Program-made: the position numbers and the translations under genes | The notes under the pieces: generated by a model | What the model was told of the DNA's origin: nothing | The model's database searches: none | The model's input: the letters and a program-made list of their open reading frames with translations, nothing else | Assembly (NCBI GenBank): GCA_902570675.1 | Contig: CACFYZ010000001.1 | Coordinates: forward strand, 96,409-160,408 | Direction: 5' to 3' | Source of the DNA: an uncultured Pelagibacteraceae bacterium | GTDB lineage: Bacteria > Pseudomonadota > Alphaproteobacteria > Pelagibacterales > AG-422-B15 | DNA: 64,000 nucleotides | In this document: positions 30,313 through 37,260 of the stretch, piece by piece | Numbering within the stretch: position 1 is the first letter of the stretch | Layout of the letters: each line of letters begins with the position of its first letter

Positions 30313-31764
30313 ATGCAATACACGGTTTCTTCAGAAGATAAACTTCATGAAGAATGTGGTGTATTTGGGGTATTTGGAAGTCCAGATGCCTCTACACTGA
30401 CTGCATTAGGTTTGCATGCATTACAACACAGAGGTCAAGAAGGCGCAGGTATAGTTTCATTTGATGGCGAAAAATTTCATGGTGTAAGAAGACCAGGATT
30501 AGTTGGTGATCATTTTAATAAGCAAAAAGTTATAGAACGACTAGAAGGCAGTAATGCAATTGGTCATGTGAGATATTCAACAACAGGCGACACAATATTA
30601 AAAAATATACAACCACTTTATGCCGATTTATCTACAGGTGGCTTTGCTTGTGCGCATAATGGAAATTTAACTAATGCTTCTATTTTGCGAGATCATTTAG
30701 TAAGTGAGGGGGCAATTTTTCAATCAACTTCAGACACTGAAACCATTCTGCAACTAGTTGCAAGGTCTTCAAGAAAACAAACCGTAGATAAACTCATTGA
30801 TGCTCTATTCAAGATACAAGGAGCGTATTCTCTAGTGATTCTCACTAATAAAAAATTAATTGGAGTTAGAGATCCTTTGGGAATAAGACCGTTAGTTCTA
30901 GGTGACCTTAACGGTGCTCCTGTATTAGCTTCAGAAACCTGCGCATTTGATATCATTGGTGCAAAATACATAAGAAATATAGAAAATGGTGAAATAATTA
31001 TTATTTCTGAAAGTGGTATTGAAAGTATTAAACCTTTTCCAAAAGTAAACGAAAGACCATGTATTTTTGAAAGAATATATTTTGCAAGACCAGATAGTAT
31101 TGTTGATGGAAAGACAGTTTATACATACAGAAAAAATTTAGGTGAACAACTAGCAAAAGAAAATCCAATTGATGTTGATGTCGTAATTCCTGTTCCTGAC
31201 TCAGGCGTACCAGCAGCTTTAGGATATTCACAAGCATCAAAAATTCCATTTGAGTTAGGAATTATAAGAAATCATTATGTAGGAAGAACATTTATTGAAC
31301 CGACACAAAGTATTAGACAATTTGGAGTAAAACTAAAGCATAATGCAAATTTATCATTTATTAAGGGAAAGAAAGTTCTTCTTATAGATGACTCAATTGT
31401 ACGTGGAACAACTGCAAAAAAAATAATTAAAATGATATTTGATGCAGGCGCTAAAGAAGTTCATCTTGGTATTGCGTGCCCACCAATTACTCACCCCGAT
31501 TTTTACGGAATTGACACGCCAGATTATAATGAATTAATAGCCTCCAAGATGACTGTAGATGAGATTAATCAAACAATTGGATGTAATACTTTATTTTTTT
31601 TATCACTAAATGGAACCTATAAAGCTATGGGTCATAATGAAAGAGATGACAAAAATCCTCAATTTACAGATCATTGTTTTACTGGTGACTATCCAACAGG
31701 TCTTTTAGATCGAGAACAGGGAAGTGTCTCAAAGCAGTTTTCTCTTCTATCAGAAAAAAATTAA
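30313..31764 (+). CDS. purF: Amidophosphoribosyltransferase
   Basis: N-terminal nucleophile HEECGVFGVFG. PRTase motif VLLIDDSIVRGTT. Confidence 0.95.
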   Translation: MQYTVSSEDKLHEECGVFGVFGSPDASTLTALGLHALQHRGQEGAGIVSFDGEKFHGVRRPGLVGDHFNKQKVIERLEGSNAIGHVRYSTTGDTILKNIQPLYADLSTGGFACAHNGNLTNASILRDHLVSEGAIFQSTSDTETILQLVARSSRKQTVDKLIDALFKIQGAYSLVILTNKKLIGVRDPLGIRPLVLGDLNGAPVLASETCAFDIIGAKYIRNIENGEIIIISESGIESIKPFPKVNERPCIFERIYFARPDSIVDGKTVYTYRKNLGEQLAKENPIDVDVVIPVPDSGVPAALGYSQASKIPFELGIIRNHYVGRTFIEPTQSIRQFGVKLKHNANLSFIKGKKVLLIDDSIVRGTTAKKIIKMIFDAGAKEVHLGIACPPITHPDFYGIDTPDYNELIASKMTVDEINQTIGCNTLFFLSLNGTYKAMGHNERDDKNPQFTDHCFTGDYPTGLLDREQGSVSKQFSLLSEKN

Positions 31765-32540
31765 ATTTCTTTAGGTACGCCTACAACGTTATAACCACAA
31801 TCAACATAATGAATTTCTCCAGTGACGCCAGATGACAAATCACTAAGAAGATAAAGTCCAGACTTACCCACATCCTCAAGACTAATATTACGGTTCATCA
31901 ATGAATTTTTTTCTGACCATTTCATCATATCTTTCCCACCAGAGATCCCGGCCATTGCAAGTGTTTTCATGGGACCAGCTGAGAGAGCATTAACTCTTAT
32001 ATTCGAACTACCTAAATCAGCAGCTAAATATCGCACACTTGATTCAAGAGCAGCTTTAGCTACACCCATAACATTATAATTACGTATGAATTTTCGAGAA
32101 CCGTCGTAAGTCAGCGTTAAAATAGAACCCCCATTAACCATTAATTGACTTGCTTCACGGGCTACCTCAGTTAGAGAAAAACAAGAGATTAACATTGTAT
32201 TTTGAAAATTTTCTCGAGAAGTGTTTAGATACTTTCCTTTTAGTTCATTTTTATCGGAGAAAGCAATAGAATGTAAAACAAAATCAATTTTATTCCATCT
32301 TTCTCTAACCTGATTAAACGTATTTTTTACAGAACTCTCATTTAATACATTACATTCAATAATAAAATTATTTTGAATTGACTCTGCTAGAGGTTTAACT
32401 CGTTTAAAAAGCGCATCGCCTTGATAAGTAAAACAAAGTTCAGCTCCATTATCGGAAAGCTGTTTGGCGATTCCCCAAGCAATTGAGAGTTCATTAGCCA
32501 CCCCCATAATTACTCCTTTTTTACCAGCTAAATTAATCAT
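31761..32540 (-). CDS. fabI: Enoyl-[acyl-carrier-protein] reductase (NADH)
   Basis: [14 protein letters not shown]-terminus and an SDR fold. It is the last gene of the fabA-fabB-fabI string. Confidence 0.92.
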
Positions 32541-33751
32541 TTTTTAAATCTTTCAAATACTAAAGAAGCATTTGTTCCACCAAATCCAAAACTATTACTC
32601 ATCGCAGTATGAATTTTGTCATCAAGACGATTAGTGAGTATGTTCATATTTTCTGCTTCTTCGTCAAGTTCATCAATATTTGCTGATTCTGAGAGAAAAT
32701 TATCTTTCATCATAAGTAAAGTGTATATCGATTCATGAACTCCTGCTGCACCCAGAGAATGTCCACTTAATGATTTTGTTGAACTTATAAAAGGTATGGA
32801 ATCTCCAAAGACATTTTTTATAGCTTTAAGTTCAGCAACATCACCTACTGGAGTAGACGTTCCATGGGCATTTATATAATCAATTTTATCAATATTTTTG
32901 GTTGCCATCTTCATACAACGTACCGCTCCCTCACCTGAGGGTTGAACCATATCAAAGCCATCTGAAGTCGCACCATAACCAACAATTTCTGCATATATTT
33001 TGGCGTTTCTATTTAATGCTGTTTCTAAATCTTCAAGAACCAAAACACCACCACCACCTGCGATCACAAATCCATCTCTATTTCTATCAAATGCTCTTGA
33101 AGCTTTTTCAGGAGACTCGTTATATTTAGAGGATAAAGCTGGCATGGCATCAAACAAAGCTGATAGTGTCCAATCAAGTTCTTCACCACCGCCAGCAAAA
33201 ATTCTATCTTGCTTACCTAATTGTATTAATTCGTAAGCATTGCCAATACAATGAGCACTGGTTGAACATGCCGAGCTGATTGAGTAATTCACTCCTTTAA
33301 TTTTAAAATAAGTAGATAATGTTGCTGAATTTGTACTGCACATTACCTTAGGAACACTTGTAGGTCCAATTTTCTTTGGACCTTTCTCTCTTGTAATATC
33401 AAATGCTCTGAGCAAACTCTTCGTTGAAGGCCCACCCGAACCCATGATCAATCCAGTCATATTTTCTGAGACTTCATTTTCAGCTAGGCCAGCATCTTCA
33501 ATCGCCTCCTTCATTGCAATATAATTATAGCTTGCACCGTCACCCATAAATCTTAAAAATTTTCTCTCGATAATCTCTTCAAGATTAATTTTTATCTGTC
33601 CACTGACTTGACTTCTAAACCCCATTTCTTTCTGAGAATTATCAAAAGATATTCCTGAGGAACAATTATAAAGTGAATCTTTGACTTCTTTTTTATTGTT
33701 TCCAAGTGAGGAAACAATACCTATTCCAGTTACGACAACTCTTCTAATCAC
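32537..33751 (-). CDS. fabB: 3-oxoacyl-[acyl-carrier-protein] synthase I
   Basis: Active-site [12 protein letters not shown] plus HGTSTPVGD and GHSLGAAG. Downstream of fabA. Confidence 0.92.
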
Positions 33752-34248
33752 TTTATTAATCCTACTTTTAATCCTTCGGCTGAGTATATTTCTTTTCCAT
33801 CGACACTGACGACTCCATTACCTACTCCAACGATTACTCCCCGTTTAATAACTTTTTTCATATCAATTTTATAATTTACTAGCTTAGACTCTTTTAATAT
33901 TTCTCCACCAAATTTTACTCCTGCCGAACCTAACGCTCTTCCTCTACCTGGGTTACCAATCCAACCTAAATAAAATCCAACAAGTTGCCACATTGCATCA
34001 AGTCCTAGGCAACCTGGCATTACAGGATCCATTTCAAAATGACAGTCAAAAAACCACAAATCAGGTTTTATATCCAATTCCGCATGAATTTCACCTTTGC
34101 TAAATTGCCCAGTATTGTCAGTAATTTTTGTGATTCGATCAAACATTAACATAGGAGGAAGTGGTAATCGAGCATTGCCAATTCCAAACATTGTTCCATG
34201 CGCGCATTGAAGCAGTTCTTCTTTGGTATAGCTAGATTTTTTTTCCAC
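33748..34248 (-). CDS. fabA: 3-hydroxydecanoyl-ACP dehydratase/isomerase
   Basis: [24 protein letters not shown] signature. Confidence 0.94.
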
Positions 34249-34341: not shown

Positions 34342-34734
34342 ATGAAAGATATCAAGGATTTTTTAAGATCGAATTCTCTAAGGCCTACTAAGCAAAGAGT
34401 GTTAATAGCTGAATACTTATTCGATGGTGAAAATAAACACGTTACTGCTGAAAAACTCTCAAACGAACTTAATAGACGTAGAACAGGAATCTCATTAGCA
34501 ACAGTTTACAACACCTTACATGATTTTTACGAGAGAGGTCTCTTAAAAAAATTATCGCTAGGTTTAGATAGAGTGTATTTTGATACGAATACCGACCATC
34601 ATCATCACTTCTATTCTGATAAAGAACAACTGCTAATTGATATTAATAATAAGTTAAAGGTATCAGGTTTACCGAAGTTACCAAAAAATAAAAAAACAAA
34701 TAAGATTGAAGTCATAGTTCATCTAGATAATTAA
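34342..34734 (+). CDS. irr: Iron response regulator Irr (Fur family, cysteine-free, HHHH motif)
   Basis: Fur-type wHTH (RPTKQRVLIAEYL...SLATVYNTLHDF) and a DHHHHFY His cluster. No Cys. Divergent from fabA, as in many alphaproteobacteria. Confidence 0.8.
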   Translation: MKDIKDFLRSNSLRPTKQRVLIAEYLFDGENKHVTAEKLSNELNRRRTGISLATVYNTLHDFYERGLLKKLSLGLDRVYFDTNTDHHHHFYSDKEQLLIDINNKLKVSGLPKLPKNKKTNKIEVIVHLDN

Positions 34735-34757: not shown

Positions 34758-34774
34758 TTTAGAATGATTCTAAA
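34758..34774. promoter_or_regulatory. Irr-binding iron control element (ICE) TTTAGAAtgaTTCTAAA
   Basis: Exact match to the published ICE consensus TTTAGAA-N3-TTCTAAA. It ends 3 nt before a TTGACA hexamer (34778..34783), upstream of rubrerythrin. Confidence 0.6.
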
Positions 34775-34835
34775 CTATTGACAATTTCCAAAAATACTAT
34801 ATTTATAACATCGGTTATTTATTGAGGAGAAAATT

Positions 34836-35255
34836 ATGACTGAATTAAAAGATAGTAAGACACTAGACAATCTAAAGGCTGCTTTCGCAGGTGAAAGTCA
34901 AGCAAACCGTAGATATCTATATTTTGCACAAAAAGCTGATGTAGAAGGACACAATGACGTCGCTGCAGTATTTAGATCAACTGCAGAAGGCGAAACTGGA
35001 CATGCTCACGGACATTTAGAATTTATGGAAGAAGTTGGTGACCCTGCAACTGGAGAGCCAATTGGTTCTACAGAAGAAAATCTAAAAGCTGCTATTGCAG
35101 GTGAAACGCATGAGTACACAGATATGTATCCTGGAATGGCAAAGACTGCGCGAGAGGAAGGCTTTGATGAAATTGCTGATTGGTTTGAAACATTAGCTAA
35201 AGCAGAAAAATCCCATGCGGGTAAATTTCAAAAAACACTAGAGTCTATAGACTAA
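34836..35255 (+). CDS. rbr: Rubrerythrin-family diiron protein without a rubredoxin domain
   Basis: Ferritin-like four-helix pattern with E...ExxH pairs ([10 protein letters not shown]; GETHEY...AEKSHAGKF). 139 aa with no cysteine, so it has no rubredoxin module. GGAG RBS upstream. Confidence 0.88.
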
Positions 35256-35262
35256 ATAACAT

Positions 35263-35290
35263 AAGGGACTGTTCGCAGTCCCTTTTTTTT
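35263..35290 (+). terminator. Intrinsic terminator: 9-bp stem AAGGGACTG/CAGTCCCTT with a TTCG tetraloop and a T8 tract
   Basis: Read directly. It starts 8 nt after the rubrerythrin stop and ends 5 nt before the next start codon. Confidence 0.8.
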
Positions 35291-35295
35291 AATCT

Positions 35296-36636
35296 ATGGA
35301 CAGTAAAAAAGAGGGCAGTTTAGCTGCTCCTACAAGAGATATAATCGATTGGAATTCAGATGAATACTTAGACAAAGCATCTCTGGATACTGAGATGCGC
35401 AGGCAATTTGAAGTTTGTCATAGTTGTCGAAGGTGCTTTAATTTATGCGATAGTTTTCCCACTTTATTTGATTTAATCGATGACTCACCTAATGAGTCAG
35501 TTGATGATTTAACAAAAAAAGATTTTGAAGACATTACTGACAAATGCACATTGTGTGATATGTGTTTTATGACCAAGTGTCCCTATGTTCCCCCTCATGA
35601 GTTCAATATTGATTTTCCACATTTAATGCTTAGATACAGAACTTATCAAGATAAACAAAAAAAATTACCAAAATTTCCTAAAGAGCTTGCAAAAATTGAT
35701 CGTAATGCATCAACTGCAAGGCTAGCACCAAGTATAGCGAATTGGTCATCAGGTAAGAAAAATAAATTAACGCGTAAGCCTCTAGAATTATTAAGTGGAA
35801 TTGATCAACATGCTGAACTCCCCAAATTTGAAAAAAAAACGTTTCATGATCAATTCAATAATCTTGAAAATTTAATTAACAAAAATGCGCCAGCTTATGG
35901 AAGAAAAGTTGCTATTTATTCAACTTGTTATGTCAATCACAATAATTCAAAGGTTGGTATAGCTGCTAACAAAGTATTAAACCATAATGGTGTTGAAACC
36001 ATCTCAACATATCCAGGTTGTTGTGGAATGCCGCATTTAGAGCAGGCACAACATGAAAAAGTTAAGACCCAATCAGAGAAAGTTTCAAAAGAACTCTGTA
36101 ATTTGATTGATCAGGGATATGATATTATAACACTTACTGCTAGTTGTGGTCTAATGCTTAAATTTGAATGGCAACTTATTAACCCTAGCAACGAAAATGT
36201 TAAAAGATTATCAAAGCATGTGTTTGATATTGATGAGTATATTGTTGATATTGCTAAGAAAGAGGGTCTTGTTGATGGACTAACACCCTTTGATGAAGGT
36301 GTAACAGTACACAACGCTTGTCATGCTCGAGCCCAGAACATGGGAAATAAGGCTCTTGAAATGCTAAAGAAAATACCTGAAACAAAAGTAGATGTTATTG
36401 AAAAATGTGCAGGTCATGGAGGTACATTTGGAGTGATGAAAAAAACAAGAAAACATGCTGTTAAGTATGGCAAAAGTACTGCAAGACAAATAAAAAATAA
36501 AAAAAATAAATATATGGTTTCGGACTGTCCGCTTGCCTGCAAACACCTAAATGAGTTTTTAAATCAAGACAAAGAAGCAAATTATATTTCTATGCACCCA
36601 ATCGAGGTGATTGCTAAATCTTACAATATATCTTGA
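35296..36636 (+). CDS. (Fe-S)-binding protein of the HdrD/GlpC/GlcF type (two ferredoxin-like 4Fe-4S motifs plus two CCG-type cysteine-rich domains)
   Basis: CHSCRRCFNLC and CTLCDMCFMTKCP cluster motifs. The CCG-like motifs are PGCCGMP and a second Cys-rich region (NACHARAQ, CAGHGG). Physiological substrate unknown. Confidence 0.75.
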   Translation: MDSKKEGSLAAPTRDIIDWNSDEYLDKASLDTEMRRQFEVCHSCRRCFNLCDSFPTLFDLIDDSPNESVDDLTKKDFEDITDKCTLCDMCFMTKCPYVPPHEFNIDFPHLMLRYRTYQDKQKKLPKFPKELAKIDRNASTARLAPSIANWSSGKKNKLTRKPLELLSGIDQHAELPKFEKKTFHDQFNNLENLINKNAPAYGRKVAIYSTCYVNHNNSKVGIAANKVLNHNGVETISTYPGCCGMPHLEQAQHEKVKTQSEKVSKELCNLIDQGYDIITLTASCGLMLKFEWQLINPSNENVKRLSKHVFDIDEYIVDIAKKEGLVDGLTPFDEGVTVHNACHARAQNMGNKALEMLKKIPETKVDVIEKCAGHGGTFGVMKKTRKHAVKYGKSTARQIKNKKNKYMVSDCPLACKHLNEFLNQDKEANYISMHPIEVIAKSYNIS

Positions 36637-36666
36637 TAAGCAATATTTAATTACTATTTAAATAAG

Positions 36667-37260
36667 ATGCCCATACAAAATAAAAAAATTGACAGTTCAG
36701 ATCTATTAGATCTCAACACATATGCCAAAGAGCGTAAGGCAATTAGAAGTGAACTTGTTGAAATGAAAAAAAATAGAAGAGTAGAATTGGGTCCTCACTC
36801 TACATTTTACTTTGAGAACTTTTTCACAATGAAGGCGCAAATACAAGAAATGCTATACATTGAAAAGGGAGGCGACGAACAATTAAAAGATGAACTTGAT
36901 GCTTATAATCCTCTTATACCTCAAGGTACTGAGCTAGTAGCAACATTCATGTTCGAAATAGATAATCCGGTTACTAGAAAAAAAGTTTTGTCTTCATTAG
37001 GAAATGTCGAAAACAAAATATTTATTAGTGTTAATGGAAATAAAATATTTGCAACGCCTGAGAGTGATGTTGATCGCACTGATGACTCTGGCAAAACATC
37101 TTCAGTTCACTTTCTGCATTTTAAATTTGAAGATCAACATATCAAAGATTTCAAAAATATGGAAAATCGTGTTGAAATAGGAACTGATCATAAGAATTAT
37201 CCGCATCTATCTATTTTCACAAATGAAGTTAAGGCAGCATTAATAAAAGATTTTGATTAA
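36667..37260 (+). CDS. Uncharacterised protein, DUF3501-like (recalled family; usually found next to rubrerythrin and HdrD-like genes)
   Basis: 197 aa, soluble, with no Cys and no recognisable catalytic motif. The family assignment is from memory of the conserved neighbourhood and needs an HMM check. Confidence 0.5.
   Translation: MPIQNKKIDSSDLLDLNTYAKERKAIRSELVEMKKNRRVELGPHSTFYFENFFTMKAQIQEMLYIEKGGDEQLKDELDAYNPLIPQGTELVATFMFEIDNPVTRKKVLSSLGNVENKIFISVNGNKIFATPESDVDRTDDSGKTSSVHFLHFKFEDQHIKDFKNMENRVEIGTDHKNYPHLSIFTNEVKAALIKDFD

Follow-up and report, generated by a model that had tools for sequence, protein, structure and literature searches.

The three genes at positions 34836-37260 of the window (the whole 64,000-nucleotide stretch of Pelagibacteraceae DNA analysed here) are the SAR11 copy of the aerobic-type rubrerythrin system, which consists of a rubrerythrin (RBR), a CCG-type Fe-S protein (RFO) and a DUF3501 protein. 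This trio is already known; it was named in 2016 by Cárdenas et al., who found the trio in 185 genomes and an almost exclusive co-occurrence of the three components (PMC5114695). All three proteins are coherently retained in protist mitochondria (Gray et al. 2020; PMC7050145), and the Rbr operon of Burkholderia pseudomallei is another described case of the system (PMC12154734). The original prediction, made from the sequence alone, that the module is uncharacterised is contradicted by these three reports. Its further statement that the trio as a whole has no biochemical description still appears correct within the literature searched: the biochemistry there covers the rubrerythrin component only, and electron transfer from RFO to RBR, a three-protein complex, and an activity of RFO or DUF3501 are not reported in it. 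Peroxide reduction at the diiron site is the most likely function. For the overall reading, in which this reduction is fed by RFO, coupled by DUF3501 and controlled by Irr, we estimate a probability of roughly 0.6.

The SAR11 locus contains the same three families as the published system, in identical order, and its rubrerythrin is also without a rubredoxin domain. Four features place it in the system: a rubredoxin-less RBR, an adjacent CCG Fe-S protein, an adjacent PF12007 gene and co-occurrence of the three across lineages. Nothing essential is different; the SAR11 copy has an irr-like gene and a perfect predicted ICE box ahead of it and a terminator-like hairpin between rbr and rfo. The three genes are co-oriented, with the open reading frames originally listed. 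The irr-like gene and the ICE box lie just beyond the three-gene stretch, yet are part of the unit, for which we propose the layout irr, ICE-promoter, rbr, partial terminator, rfo, duf3501 (see table).

Features of the rubrerythrin locus, in window coordinates
Feature	Coordinates	Strand	Evidence or remark
irr-like Fur-family regulator gene, 130 aa, no Cys	34342-34734	+	Pfam FUR, E 1.1e-18
Predicted ICE / Irr box, perfect, TTTAGAA-TGA-TTCTAAA	34758-34774	.	Just upstream of TTGACA hexamer (34778-34783)
rbr, aerobic-type (rubredoxin-less) rubrerythrin, 139 aa	34836-35255	+	Pfam PF02915, E 3.5e-30
Intrinsic-terminator-like hairpin, 9-bp stem, 4-nt loop, then T8	35263-35292	+	Terminator scan
rfo, soluble, two ferredoxin-type motifs, two CCG domains, 446 aa	35296-36636	+	Pfam CCG PF02754, E 1.7e-13, two stretches
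duf3501, cofactor-less alpha/beta protein, DUF3501 family, 197 aa	36667-37260	+	Pfam PF12007, E 6.4e-61

The rubrerythrin was predicted to be a 139-residue protein free of cysteine and of a rubredoxin domain; the HMM search and the residue count (0 Cys) agree. All seven diiron ligands are present (E20, E53, H56, E90, E93, E124 and H127, with ExxH motifs at residues 53 and 124) and are invariant across 73 homologues. RBR shows 77% identity to B. pseudomallei Rbr (PDB 4DI0/9ONM; E 4e-70) and 63% to Sulfolobus sulerythrin (1J30); by homology, it probably forms a domain-swapped dimer. It also matches 1B71 (E 7.6e-26). The classical rubrerythrins of Desulfovibrio vulgaris (1RYT/1LKM) and Pyrococcus furiosus have a diiron four-helix-bundle peroxidase domain in common with SAR11 RBR, with the same seven ligands. 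Unlike them, SAR11 RBR has no C-terminal rubredoxin domain; its electrons must come from outside. It scores 135.3 against the classical-rubrerythrin model NF045767 (RuberyRbr), below the cut-off of 200, and covers only positions 1-145 of the 194 in that model.

Ferriperoxin of Hydrogenobacter thermophilus and sulerythrin of Sulfolobus tokodaii belong to the same rubredoxin-less subfamily. Ferriperoxin is a peroxidase which is essential for aerobic growth and is active in vitro with NADPH and FNR (PMC3317640); peroxidase activity of sulerythrin is cited in PMC12154734. In the work on these two proteins RBR was supplied with electrons by FNR/NADPH or by chemical reductants, and neither RFO nor DUF3501 was included. 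The activity of ferriperoxin under such conditions counts against reduction through RFO. The peroxidase reading of the SAR11 protein is supported by the activity of these homologues. As shown for them, an RBR dimer going from the diferrous to the diferric state would turn H2O2, and probably organic hydroperoxides, into water.

RFO contains 17 Cys. The first ferredoxin motif is canonical (C41xxC44xxC47xxxC51), while the second is a CX2CX2CX4C variant (C84xxC87xxC90xxxxC95). CCG domain 1 contains C211, C242 and C243 (the CCG) and C284; CCG domain 2 contains C342, C371 (in CAG, not CCG) and C411. Across 74 alphaproteobacterial sequences fifteen of the Cys never vary; the two exceptions are C268 and C415. 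The seven CCG-domain Cys and H343 are also invariant in all six distant RFOs (from Archaea, Aquificota, Firmicutes, Actinomycetia and Tectimicrobiota), as are the eight ferredoxin-motif Cys in the five of these that have the N-terminus, which the Tectimicrobiota gene call lacks. RFO has no transmembrane segment by hydropathy (Kyte-Doolittle maximum 1.23 in a 19-residue window). The predicted anatomy of a soluble protein with two 4Fe-4S motifs and two CCG domains is thus correct in outline; CCG domain 2 is degenerate, and the distal CxxC is missing from both domains.

HdrD, GlpC and the soluble portion of EtfD have the same ferredoxin-plus-two-CCG architecture as RFO. HdrD and HdrB are defined by two complete CXnCCXnCXXC motifs of five Cys each, the ligands of noncubane [4Fe-4S] clusters; RFO is rejected as a member of either, as the second CC doublet and both distal CxxC pairs are missing. 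It is also rejected as an EtfD-type ETF:menaquinone oxidoreductase, having no N-terminal transmembrane cytochrome b domain and a length of only 446 aa. RFO lacks the membrane or heme domain that is seen in EtfD and HdrE-associated proteins, and it has no flavoprotein partner near it. Its CCG domains, with 4 Cys in one and 3 Cys + His in the other, differ in ligands from both HdrB (5+5 Cys) and EtfD (4 Cys; 5 Cys + His).

Neither a sequence nor a profile search with RFO gave a useful hit in the PDB. In a Foldseek search, the AF2 model of an RFO homologue matched EtfD (9OJN; 410 columns), LutA (9A6L; TM 0.80) and HdrB (5ODC/7BKB; TM about 0.6); in this model the likeness to LutA is limited to the CCG half. 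An electron wire has been described in EtfD (PMC13083937), and the fold which RFO has in common with EtfD, HdrB and LutA, all known Fe-S wires, supports a similar role. RFO would supply the two electrons that classical rubrerythrins obtain via their own rubredoxin domain, and would do so as a wire of two cubane [4Fe-4S] clusters and the CCG-domain cluster(s), like soluble HdrD, GlpC and EtfD. By analogy, the primary donor would most plausibly be a quinol or reduced ETF; a thiol is less likely. The idea of RFO standing in for the rubredoxin domain as electron source is already in print, and the gap around the activity of RFO and DUF3501 and the electron donor is likewise recognised in the literature.

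The third protein was predicted to be a DUF3501-like protein of 197 aa with no cofactor motif, and this is what is found; it contains no Cys. It is a homologue of the solved B. pseudomallei protein 3FJV (E 2.4e-30 by sequence), the entry for which is titled 'novel protein of unknown function'. The AF2 model of DUF3501 (pLDDT 95.6) has 3FJV as its sole fold match in the PDB (TM 0.90-0.92), with no other significant neighbour in that search. At 50% identity the family falls into 2,096 clusters; R23, F49, E50, E61, E66, E76, Y80, E97, R104, H175 and Y178 are conserved. DUF3501, which has no redox cofactor, may serve as a docking or adaptor subunit that joins RFO, or another reductase in organisms without RFO, to RBR.

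Of 80 alphaproteobacterial loci, 72 have the order rbr-rfo-duf3501, and contig ends truncate seven of the remaining eight. The related-locus scan yielded Alphaproteobacteria only, and distant lineages were reached by a sulerythrin-seeded protein search and contig look-ups. Identical order is seen in six of the eight distant look-ups (Sulfolobus, Thermoprotei, Hydrogenobaculum of the Aquificota, Alicyclobacillaceae of the Firmicutes, Actinomycetia and Tectimicrobiota). RFO is 25-31% identical to the RBR-adjacent CCG genes of Sulfolobus, Thermoprotei, Aquificota, Firmicutes and Actinomycetia, and the Cys signature is shared. These look-ups and the 185 published genomes (PMC5114695) confirm that the three genes co-occur beyond this lineage; as RFO is also no ortholog of a characterised enzyme (see below), the prediction of a conserved functional module holds.

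Only a short gap separates rfo from duf3501 here, and in most of the other SAR11 loci it measures 1-2 nt. RFO and DUF3501 are naturally fused in P0271, which has the same irr-rbr setting; it lies on a single MAG contig, and the fusion may be due to a stop-codon error. The flanks of related loci contain no further conserved redox partner. The kept gene order, the tight rfo-duf3501 spacing, this fusion and the lack of another conserved redox partner together support RFO-fed, DUF3501-coupled peroxide reduction as the best explanation. A mirror-tree and partial-correlation test of co-evolution among RFO, DUF3501 and RBR did not discriminate them from the housekeeping neighbours FabA and FabB. A second RFO-DUF3501 fusion is P0316, and fusions have been reported in Nitrosomonas (PMC5114695).

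Some carriers have an incomplete set. Thermoproteales have RBR with DUF3501 and no RFO (PMC5114695); among the distant look-ups, locus L083 has RBR and DUF3501 without RFO, and L088 has RBR alone. In some lineages, therefore, RBR can function without RFO, which counts against the main reading. The retention of DUF3501 with RBR where RFO is absent (PMC5114695; L083) is one point in favour of a different division of labour, in which generic reductases reduce RBR while RFO and DUF3501 maintain it, by iron (re-)insertion or by reductive reactivation of over-oxidised or mis-metallated enzyme, with DUF3501 as a carboxylate-rich metallochaperone. This would also fit the activity of ferriperoxin with NADPH and FNR only (PMC3317640), the dimetal site of B. 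pseudomallei Rbr, which is pre-formed and binds Fe, Mn and Co promiscuously (PMC12154734), and the conservation in DUF3501 of many Glu, one His and two Tyr, with no Cys. However, 15 conserved Cys and several Fe-S clusters would be costly for occasional repair, the fold of RFO is that of throughput electron wires, and the DUF3501 crystal structure entry 3FJV has no known metal site; we consider such a maintenance role unlikely.

The best NCBIfam models for the irr-like protein are IrrA (138.2 bits) and Irr (137 bits), for which it is slightly below the cut-offs of 150 and 170, respectively; the HHH motif (H87/H88/H89) is conserved. An irr-like gene sits immediately ahead of rbr in 62 of 72 related loci, and the divergent fabA-fabB-fabI synteny beside it is kept in 46-52 loci. 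Synteny of this kind across the class is what the main irr should show, and it led us to reject a paralogue that serves this operon only. The ICE box upstream of rbr is the sole perfect match within the window, where about 0.004 would be expected from base composition. Allowing up to two mismatches, 52 of 62 loci have an ICE box between irr and rbr, compared with 0 of 290 control windows. The TTGACA promoter next to it was assigned by eye; the consensus scan made no call there.

The Irr/ICE regulon of Alphaproteobacteria likewise combines an HHH Fur-family regulator with TTTAGAA-N3-TTCTAAA at the promoter of a rubrerythrin gene. The rubrerythrin-like gene blr7895 of Bradyrhizobium japonicum is reportedly an example of this regulon, described by Rudolph et al. 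in 2006. In a prediction made for P. ubique in the same year, the rubrerythrin gene was the only Irr target in Pelagibacter (PMC1698941). P. ubique rbr mRNA increases 1.57-fold under iron limitation (PMC2864753); this runs opposite to canonical Irr repression at low iron and counts against the proposed control. Going by the position of the ICE box beside the -35 hexamer, Irr is predicted to control transcription of the operon, and this control would make the output of a peroxidase that is costly in iron depend on iron/heme and oxidative status. In four other phyla the module is adjoined by PerR-like regulators, and in Sideroxydans OxyR is found with it (PMC7852563). The regulatory context (Irr, PerR-like, OxyR) points to peroxide and iron stress.

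Control by Irr would also be accounted for if the trio handled iron rather than peroxide, with RBR as a ferroxidase or iron buffer and RFO and DUF3501 reducing and releasing the iron, comparable to bacterioferritin and Bfd. P. ubique has no ferritin, and its rbr, annotated as 'hypothetical ferroxidase', is up under iron limitation (PMC2864753); Irr/ICE regulons consist mostly of iron-storage and iron-usage genes (PMC1698941); and RBR has a weak match to the Ferritin domain (PF00210, E 3.7e-08). This reading is nevertheless improbable. The closest structures are domain-swapped dimers that have one dimetal site per bundle and lack a storage cavity (PMC12154734, PMC3317640), the peroxidase activity of homologues is kinetically competent, and the PerR-like and OxyR regulators in other phyla indicate peroxide (PMC7852563). 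In addition, the rubrerythrin module and KatG are mutually exclusive across SAR11 genomes (preprint 10.64898/2026.08.15.744057). This exclusivity also favours the peroxide reading. In SAR11 the module appears to substitute for KatG, which makes it relevant to the handling of H2O2 by bacteria of the oligotrophic ocean.

The nearest NCBIfam model to RFO is GlpC, yet the scores are below cut-off (180.5 against 278 for NF008369; 110.4 against 279.9 for TIGR03379) and the neighbours include no GlpA- or GlpB-like genes; identity with GlpC was rejected. GlcF (37.8 against 333), LdhH (95 against 800) and LutA, all Fe-S subunits of lactate-glycolate oxidoreductases, were rejected as well, with no conserved GlcDE or LutBC partner genes. 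The expectation that the CCG protein is not an ortholog of a characterised enzyme is upheld by these scores, all of which are below the NCBIfam cut-offs, and by the lack of a conserved flavoprotein subunit nearby. One further proposal makes RFO and DUF3501 a substrate dehydrogenase of the LutA, GlcF or GlpC kind, with DUF3501 binding the substrate and RBR as its dedicated terminal acceptor; the trio would then be a substrate:H2O2 or substrate:O2 oxidoreductase and not a general defence. It would give the donor an explanation that is otherwise wanting, and it draws on the superposition of the CCG part of RFO, which is best on LutA, and on GlpC as the nearest sequence family. It is decidedly improbable, however, as known CCG-protein dehydrogenases all require a flavoprotein subunit and none is conserved near the module, RFO is under all equivalog cut-offs, and DUF3501 is an orphan fold with no flavin, nucleotide or metal motif.

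Some rubrerythrin-family proteins have oxidase side activity, and the original prediction left room for O2 rather than H2O2 as the physiological acceptor, with the trio as a cytoplasmic oxygen-scavenging oxidase. This is highly improbable, since SAR11 is an obligate aerobe of fully oxic water with no obvious benefit from cytoplasmic O2 scavenging, the homologues are characterised as peroxidases (PMC3317640) and the neighbouring regulators are peroxide sensors (PMC7852563).

The original interpretation is thus retained in part: the anatomy and the conserved module stand and are joined by a regulatory context of peroxide and iron stress, while the claim of novelty falls and that of a 'self-contained' electron-transfer system is unproven. 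The module is very widespread, occurring in Archaea, many bacterial phyla, protist mitochondria and the most abundant marine bacterium; the SAR11 locus adds a clean, minimal and well-regulated example to these and is not a discovery in itself. A tentative extension of RFO-fed peroxide reduction, possible although we would not favour it, is that RFO represents a new functional class of CCG protein, a soluble entry point for quinol or ETF electrons to a diiron peroxidase, with DUF3501 as an obligatory docking subunit of orphan fold. The CCG ligands of RFO (4 Cys; 3 Cys + 1 His), which are conserved from Archaea to SAR11, might then hold an undescribed cluster type or arrangement. If this is true, the trio would be an unrecognised H2O2 reductase linked to the respiratory chain, and many SAR11 cells that lack catalase would have it as their main sink for peroxide.

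The hairpin between rbr and rfo has a folding energy of -13.4 kcal/mol. Comparable hairpins with a T-tract are found in 25 of 75 related loci and in several families; about 17 of these are strong. We infer that the hairpin is a partial terminator which raises RBR above RFO and DUF3501 in stoichiometry; this would allow a surplus of RBR over its reductase.

The rubrerythrin trio in the window belongs, with a probability of about 95%, to the aerobic-type rubrerythrin system, which combines a rubredoxin-less rubrerythrin (RBR), a CCG-domain Fe-S protein (RFO) and a DUF3501 protein; the locus shows every sequence-level feature of that system. The coordinates of the three open reading frames in the original prediction are exact, and Pfam profile matches confirm their families. 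The trio had been put forward as an uncharacterised module; however, it was already described in 2016 (PMC5114695), 2020 (PMC7050145) and 2025 (PMC12154734).

Cárdenas et al. 2016 found all three genes in 185 of 4,461 genomes and RBR with DUF3501 alone in 25. They also reported Nitrosomonas proteins with DUF3501-RFO fusions and suggested that RFO makes up for the missing rubredoxin domain (PMC5114695). Gray et al. 2020 described all three proteins as mitochondria-targeted in Andalucia and other protists (PMC7050145). A 2025 preprint on Burkholderia pseudomallei maps the same operon and treats the neighbours as electron-transfer partner as a hypothesis only (PMC12154734). The published biochemistry of the module covers the rubrerythrin alone (PMC3317640, PMC12154734); for RFO and DUF3501, a literature search turned up neither an activity nor a cofactor analysis nor an interaction. 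The proposed function, a peroxide- or oxygen-reducing electron-transfer system, is reasonable and attached to a real feature but not new, having been published in 2016 and again in 2020 and 2025.

Features of the window locus and of related loci (ICE, iron control element)
Feature	Contig	Coordinates	Strand	Details
fabA-fabB-fabI, divergent	window	31761-34248		beside irr
irr-like Fur-family gene, 130 aa	window	34342-34734		directly 5' of rbr
Perfect ICE, TTTAGAA-TGA-TTCTAAA	window	34758-34774		within 101-nt spacer before rbr
rbr, rubrerythrin, 139 aa	window	34836-35255	+	Pfam Rubrerythrin, E 3.5e-30
Intrinsic-terminator-like hairpin	window	35263-35292		between rbr and rfo; 9-bp GC-rich stem then T8; -13.4 kcal/mol
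rfo, CCG-domain gene, 446 aa	window	35296-36636	+	Pfam CCG, two stretches, E 1.7e-13
RFO residues 205-420	window	35908-36555		4 Cys (C211, C242, C243, C284) + 3 Cys/His (C342, H343, C371, C411)
duf3501, 197 aa	window	36667-37260	+	Pfam DUF3501, E 6.4e-61
Orphan DUF3501 gene	L062	5962-6591		flanked by DEAD-box helicase gene and glyA
SH3_4-domain gene	L044	6595-7329	-	just downstream of trio
One-mismatch ICE, TTTAGAATAATTATAAA	L012	3630		roughly 32 nt upstream of irr
One-mismatch ICE	L016-L029	about 3629		roughly 32 nt upstream of irr
PerR-like regulator	L082	7217-7660	-
PerR-like regulator	L084	7396-7812	+
PerR-like regulator	L086	7370-7786	+
PerR-like regulator	L087	4514-4987	+
RBR-DUF3501 pair without RFO	L083, Haliangium-like	1348-2481
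RBR alone	L088, deltaproteobacterial	2267-2686

The window RBR is cysteine-free, with ExxH motifs at positions 53 and 124; its diiron ligands E20, E53, H56, E90, E93, E124 and H127 are invariant among 73 homologues. It is 77% identical to B. pseudomallei Rbr (BpRbr; 4DI0, 9ONM; E 4e-70) and 63% identical to sulerythrin, both of which are domain-swapped dimers. E53 and E124 align exactly with the BpRbr residues whose mutation abolishes metal binding (PMC12154734). A classical rubrerythrin was rejected, as the rubredoxin domain is absent and the score is 135 against a cut-off of 200.

RFO contains two ferredoxin-type motifs (C41xxC44xxC47xxxC51 and C84xxC87xxC90xxxxC95) and two CCG stretches, as first read from the sequence; the complete Hdr-type five-cysteine motif is missing from both. 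CCG domain 1 has C211, C242-C243-G and C284, while domain 2 is degenerate, with C342, C371 (CAG) and C411. This reduced ligand set, which differs from those of HdrB and EtfD, is common to the window RFO and loci L081-L087, from Archaea to SAR11; C268 and C415 are specific to the window protein and unconserved. Other assignments were rejected on NCBIfam scores: LdhH (95, cut-off 800), GlcF (37.8, cut-off 333) and GlpC (180.5, cut-off 278). True HdrD/HdrB was rejected due to the incomplete CCG motifs, and EtfD due to the absence of a membrane domain; no transmembrane segment was found in the window RFO sequence. RFO is therefore not an ortholog of a characterised enzyme with partners elsewhere, in agreement with the original prediction.

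Sequence search detected no RFO relative in the PDB. Two natural fusions of RFO to DUF3501 were picked up by a consensus RFO+DUF3501 query. P0271 is encoded in an irr-rbr-fusion arrangement beside fabA and fabB; P0316 has a frame shift and is unreliable. In the AF2 model of P0271 (pLDDT 80, pTM 0.63), the C-terminal part matches 3FJV, and the N-terminal part matches LutA 9A6L (TM 0.80), HdrB of several Hdr complexes (TM ~0.6), and Mycobacterium smegmatis EtfD 9OJN over 410 aligned columns. The homologous module of EtfD is an electron wire with one linear [3Fe-4S], one noncubane [4Fe-4S] and two cubane clusters, running from ETF towards heme b and menaquinone (PMC13083937). As modelled, the architecture of RFO is that of a proven Fe-S electron wire.

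By sequence, DUF3501 is related to 3FJV, a structural-genomics entry (E 2.4e-30). The AF2 model for the window copy has very high confidence (pLDDT 95.6); 3FJV is its sole significant neighbour in the PDB (TM 0.90-0.92), and the fold is therefore an orphan. Across 55 diverse members, no conserved cysteine was found, and the conserved acidic and aromatic set comprises E50, E61, E66, E76, E97, Y80, Y178, H175, R23 and R104.

A scan with a DUF3501 alignment, one genome per species, returned 80 loci, all from Alphaproteobacteria; the closest are Pelagibacteraceae single-cell genomes (85% identity), which places the window in SAR11. Order and orientation of rbr-rfo-duf3501 are kept in 72 loci; seven of the remaining eight are interrupted by a contig end and one is a genuine orphan DUF3501. 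The rfo-duf3501 spacing is 1-2 nt in most other SAR11 loci. In the window, housekeeping genes lie beyond the irr-like gene and the trio, with fabA, fabB and fabI at one end and dut, coaBC, ubiB and ubiE at the opposite end. Clustering of all flanking ORFs of the related loci found no conserved flavoprotein or other redox partner; class-wide synteny is limited to fabI-fabB-fabA, an SH3_4 protein, a thiF-like gene, dut and coaBC. Since the divergent fab genes beside irr are kept in 46-52 of 81 loci from many alphaproteobacterial orders, the irr-rbr-rfo-duf3501 block lies in an ancient syntenic neighbourhood.

The trio is also not confined to this lineage. A distant search was seeded with the archaeal sulerythrin sequence (from the PDB alignment), and RBR-CCG-DUF3501 is present on six of the eight matching contigs inspected: Sulfolobus acidocaldarius, Hydrogenobaculum, Thermoprotei and Actinomycetia MAGs, Alicyclobacillaceae and Tectimicrobiota. 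The distant RFOs are 25-31% identical to the window RFO. The seven CCG-domain cysteines and H343 are invariant in all six, and the eight ferredoxin-motif cysteines in all five with an N-terminus; the 330-aa Tectimicrobiota gene call lacks it and was left out of this comparison.

The irr-like gene and the ICE lie beyond the stretch first predicted. The best NCBIfam models for the irr-like product are IrrA (138 bits, cut-off 150) and Irr (137 bits, cut-off 170). The perfect ICE is the only copy in the 64-kb window (~0.004 expected from base composition), and a TTGACA hexamer follows three bases beyond it. Of 72 alphaproteobacterial loci, 62 have the irr-like gene immediately 5' of rbr; the spacer carries an ICE with up to two mismatches in 52 of these 62, against 0 of 290 equal-length control windows. 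Predicted binding of Irr to the ICE, beside the putative -35 hexamer, would tie expression to iron/heme status. Such control of the SAR11 trio was specifically predicted by Rodionov et al. 2006, with the rubrerythrin gene as the minimal Irr regulon of P. ubique (PMC1698941).

Fur-family genes adjoin four distant trios (Thermoprotei, Alicyclobacillaceae, Actinomycetia and, preceding the trio, Tectimicrobiota); PerR models score best. OxyR occupies the same position in Sideroxydans (PMC7852563). Both regulators at the irr position support a role in peroxide stress. The four PerR-like proteins keep the CxxC Zn site and are 29-35% identical to the window Irr; alphaproteobacterial Irr possibly descended from a PerR-type local regulator of the trio operon.

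An electron-wire peroxidase is a somewhat favoured mechanism. The diferrous RBR site would reduce peroxide to water, as shown for homologues: ferriperoxin of Hydrogenobacter is an NADPH/FNR-dependent peroxidase that acts on H2O2 as well as organic hydroperoxides, and aerobic growth requires it (PMC3317640); for sulerythrin, PMC12154734 cites both peroxidase and catalase activity. The diferric site would then be re-reduced by the RFO clusters in place of a rubredoxin domain. Candidate donors, judged from relatives, are quinol (as for GlpC and HdrD), ETF (as for EtfD) and thiols (as for Hdr); NAD(P)H is not directly usable due to the absence of a flavin domain. The simplest reading of DUF3501 is an adaptor that would dock a reductase onto RBR, because it is cofactor-less, shows translational coupling or, in occasional cases, fusion to RFO, and is found with RBR also where RFO is missing; the main alternative is a metallochaperone. 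The hairpin 3' of rbr, present in 25 of 75 related loci from several families, may set RBR:RFO stoichiometry and would yield RBR in excess over its reductase.

Several observations fit the overall picture less well. Ferriperoxin requires neither RFO nor DUF3501 in vitro (PMC3317640), and RFO is missing from some genomes. Mean pairwise divergence is 0.11 for RBR, 0.28 for FabB, 0.36 for RFO and 0.39 for DUF3501; RBR conservation is far above that of its partners and of the neighbouring housekeeping genes. A mirror-tree co-evolution test did not separate the trio from the neighbouring FabA and FabB. In P. ubique, mRNA of rbr (SAR11_0399) goes up 1.57-fold, not down, under iron limitation (Smith et al. 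2010, PMC2864753). In stationary phase under sulfur limitation, its mRNA falls to 0.17 while the protein rises 2.24-fold (PMC5069961). Neither result would be expected if Irr simply repressed the gene at low iron.

According to a 2026 SAR11 atlas preprint (10.64898/2026.08.15.744057), KatG and a rubrerythrin-related defence module exclude each other across SAR11. The module seems to replace catalase in much of SAR11, which gives it ecological weight.

Rubredoxin-less rubrerythrins of 209-213 aa outside the window (P0393 and P0404; also P0392, P0396, P0402) have the first helix pair tandemly duplicated and so contain three helix hairpins. They derive from several independent sources; assembly artefacts and genuine variants of the domain-swapped architecture are both possible. 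Most other SAR11 loci have the one-mismatch ICE TTTAGAATAATTATAAA before irr itself and a weaker box before rbr, which suggests irr autoregulation; the window and its closest relatives, L001 and L002, have a strong ICE before rbr only. In 48 of 81 loci, a bacterial SH3_4-domain gene follows closely downstream, encoded on the opposite strand. It is missing from the window, where dut comes directly after the trio; an SH3 gene is present in one Blastocatellia rubrerythrin operon (PMC7852563).
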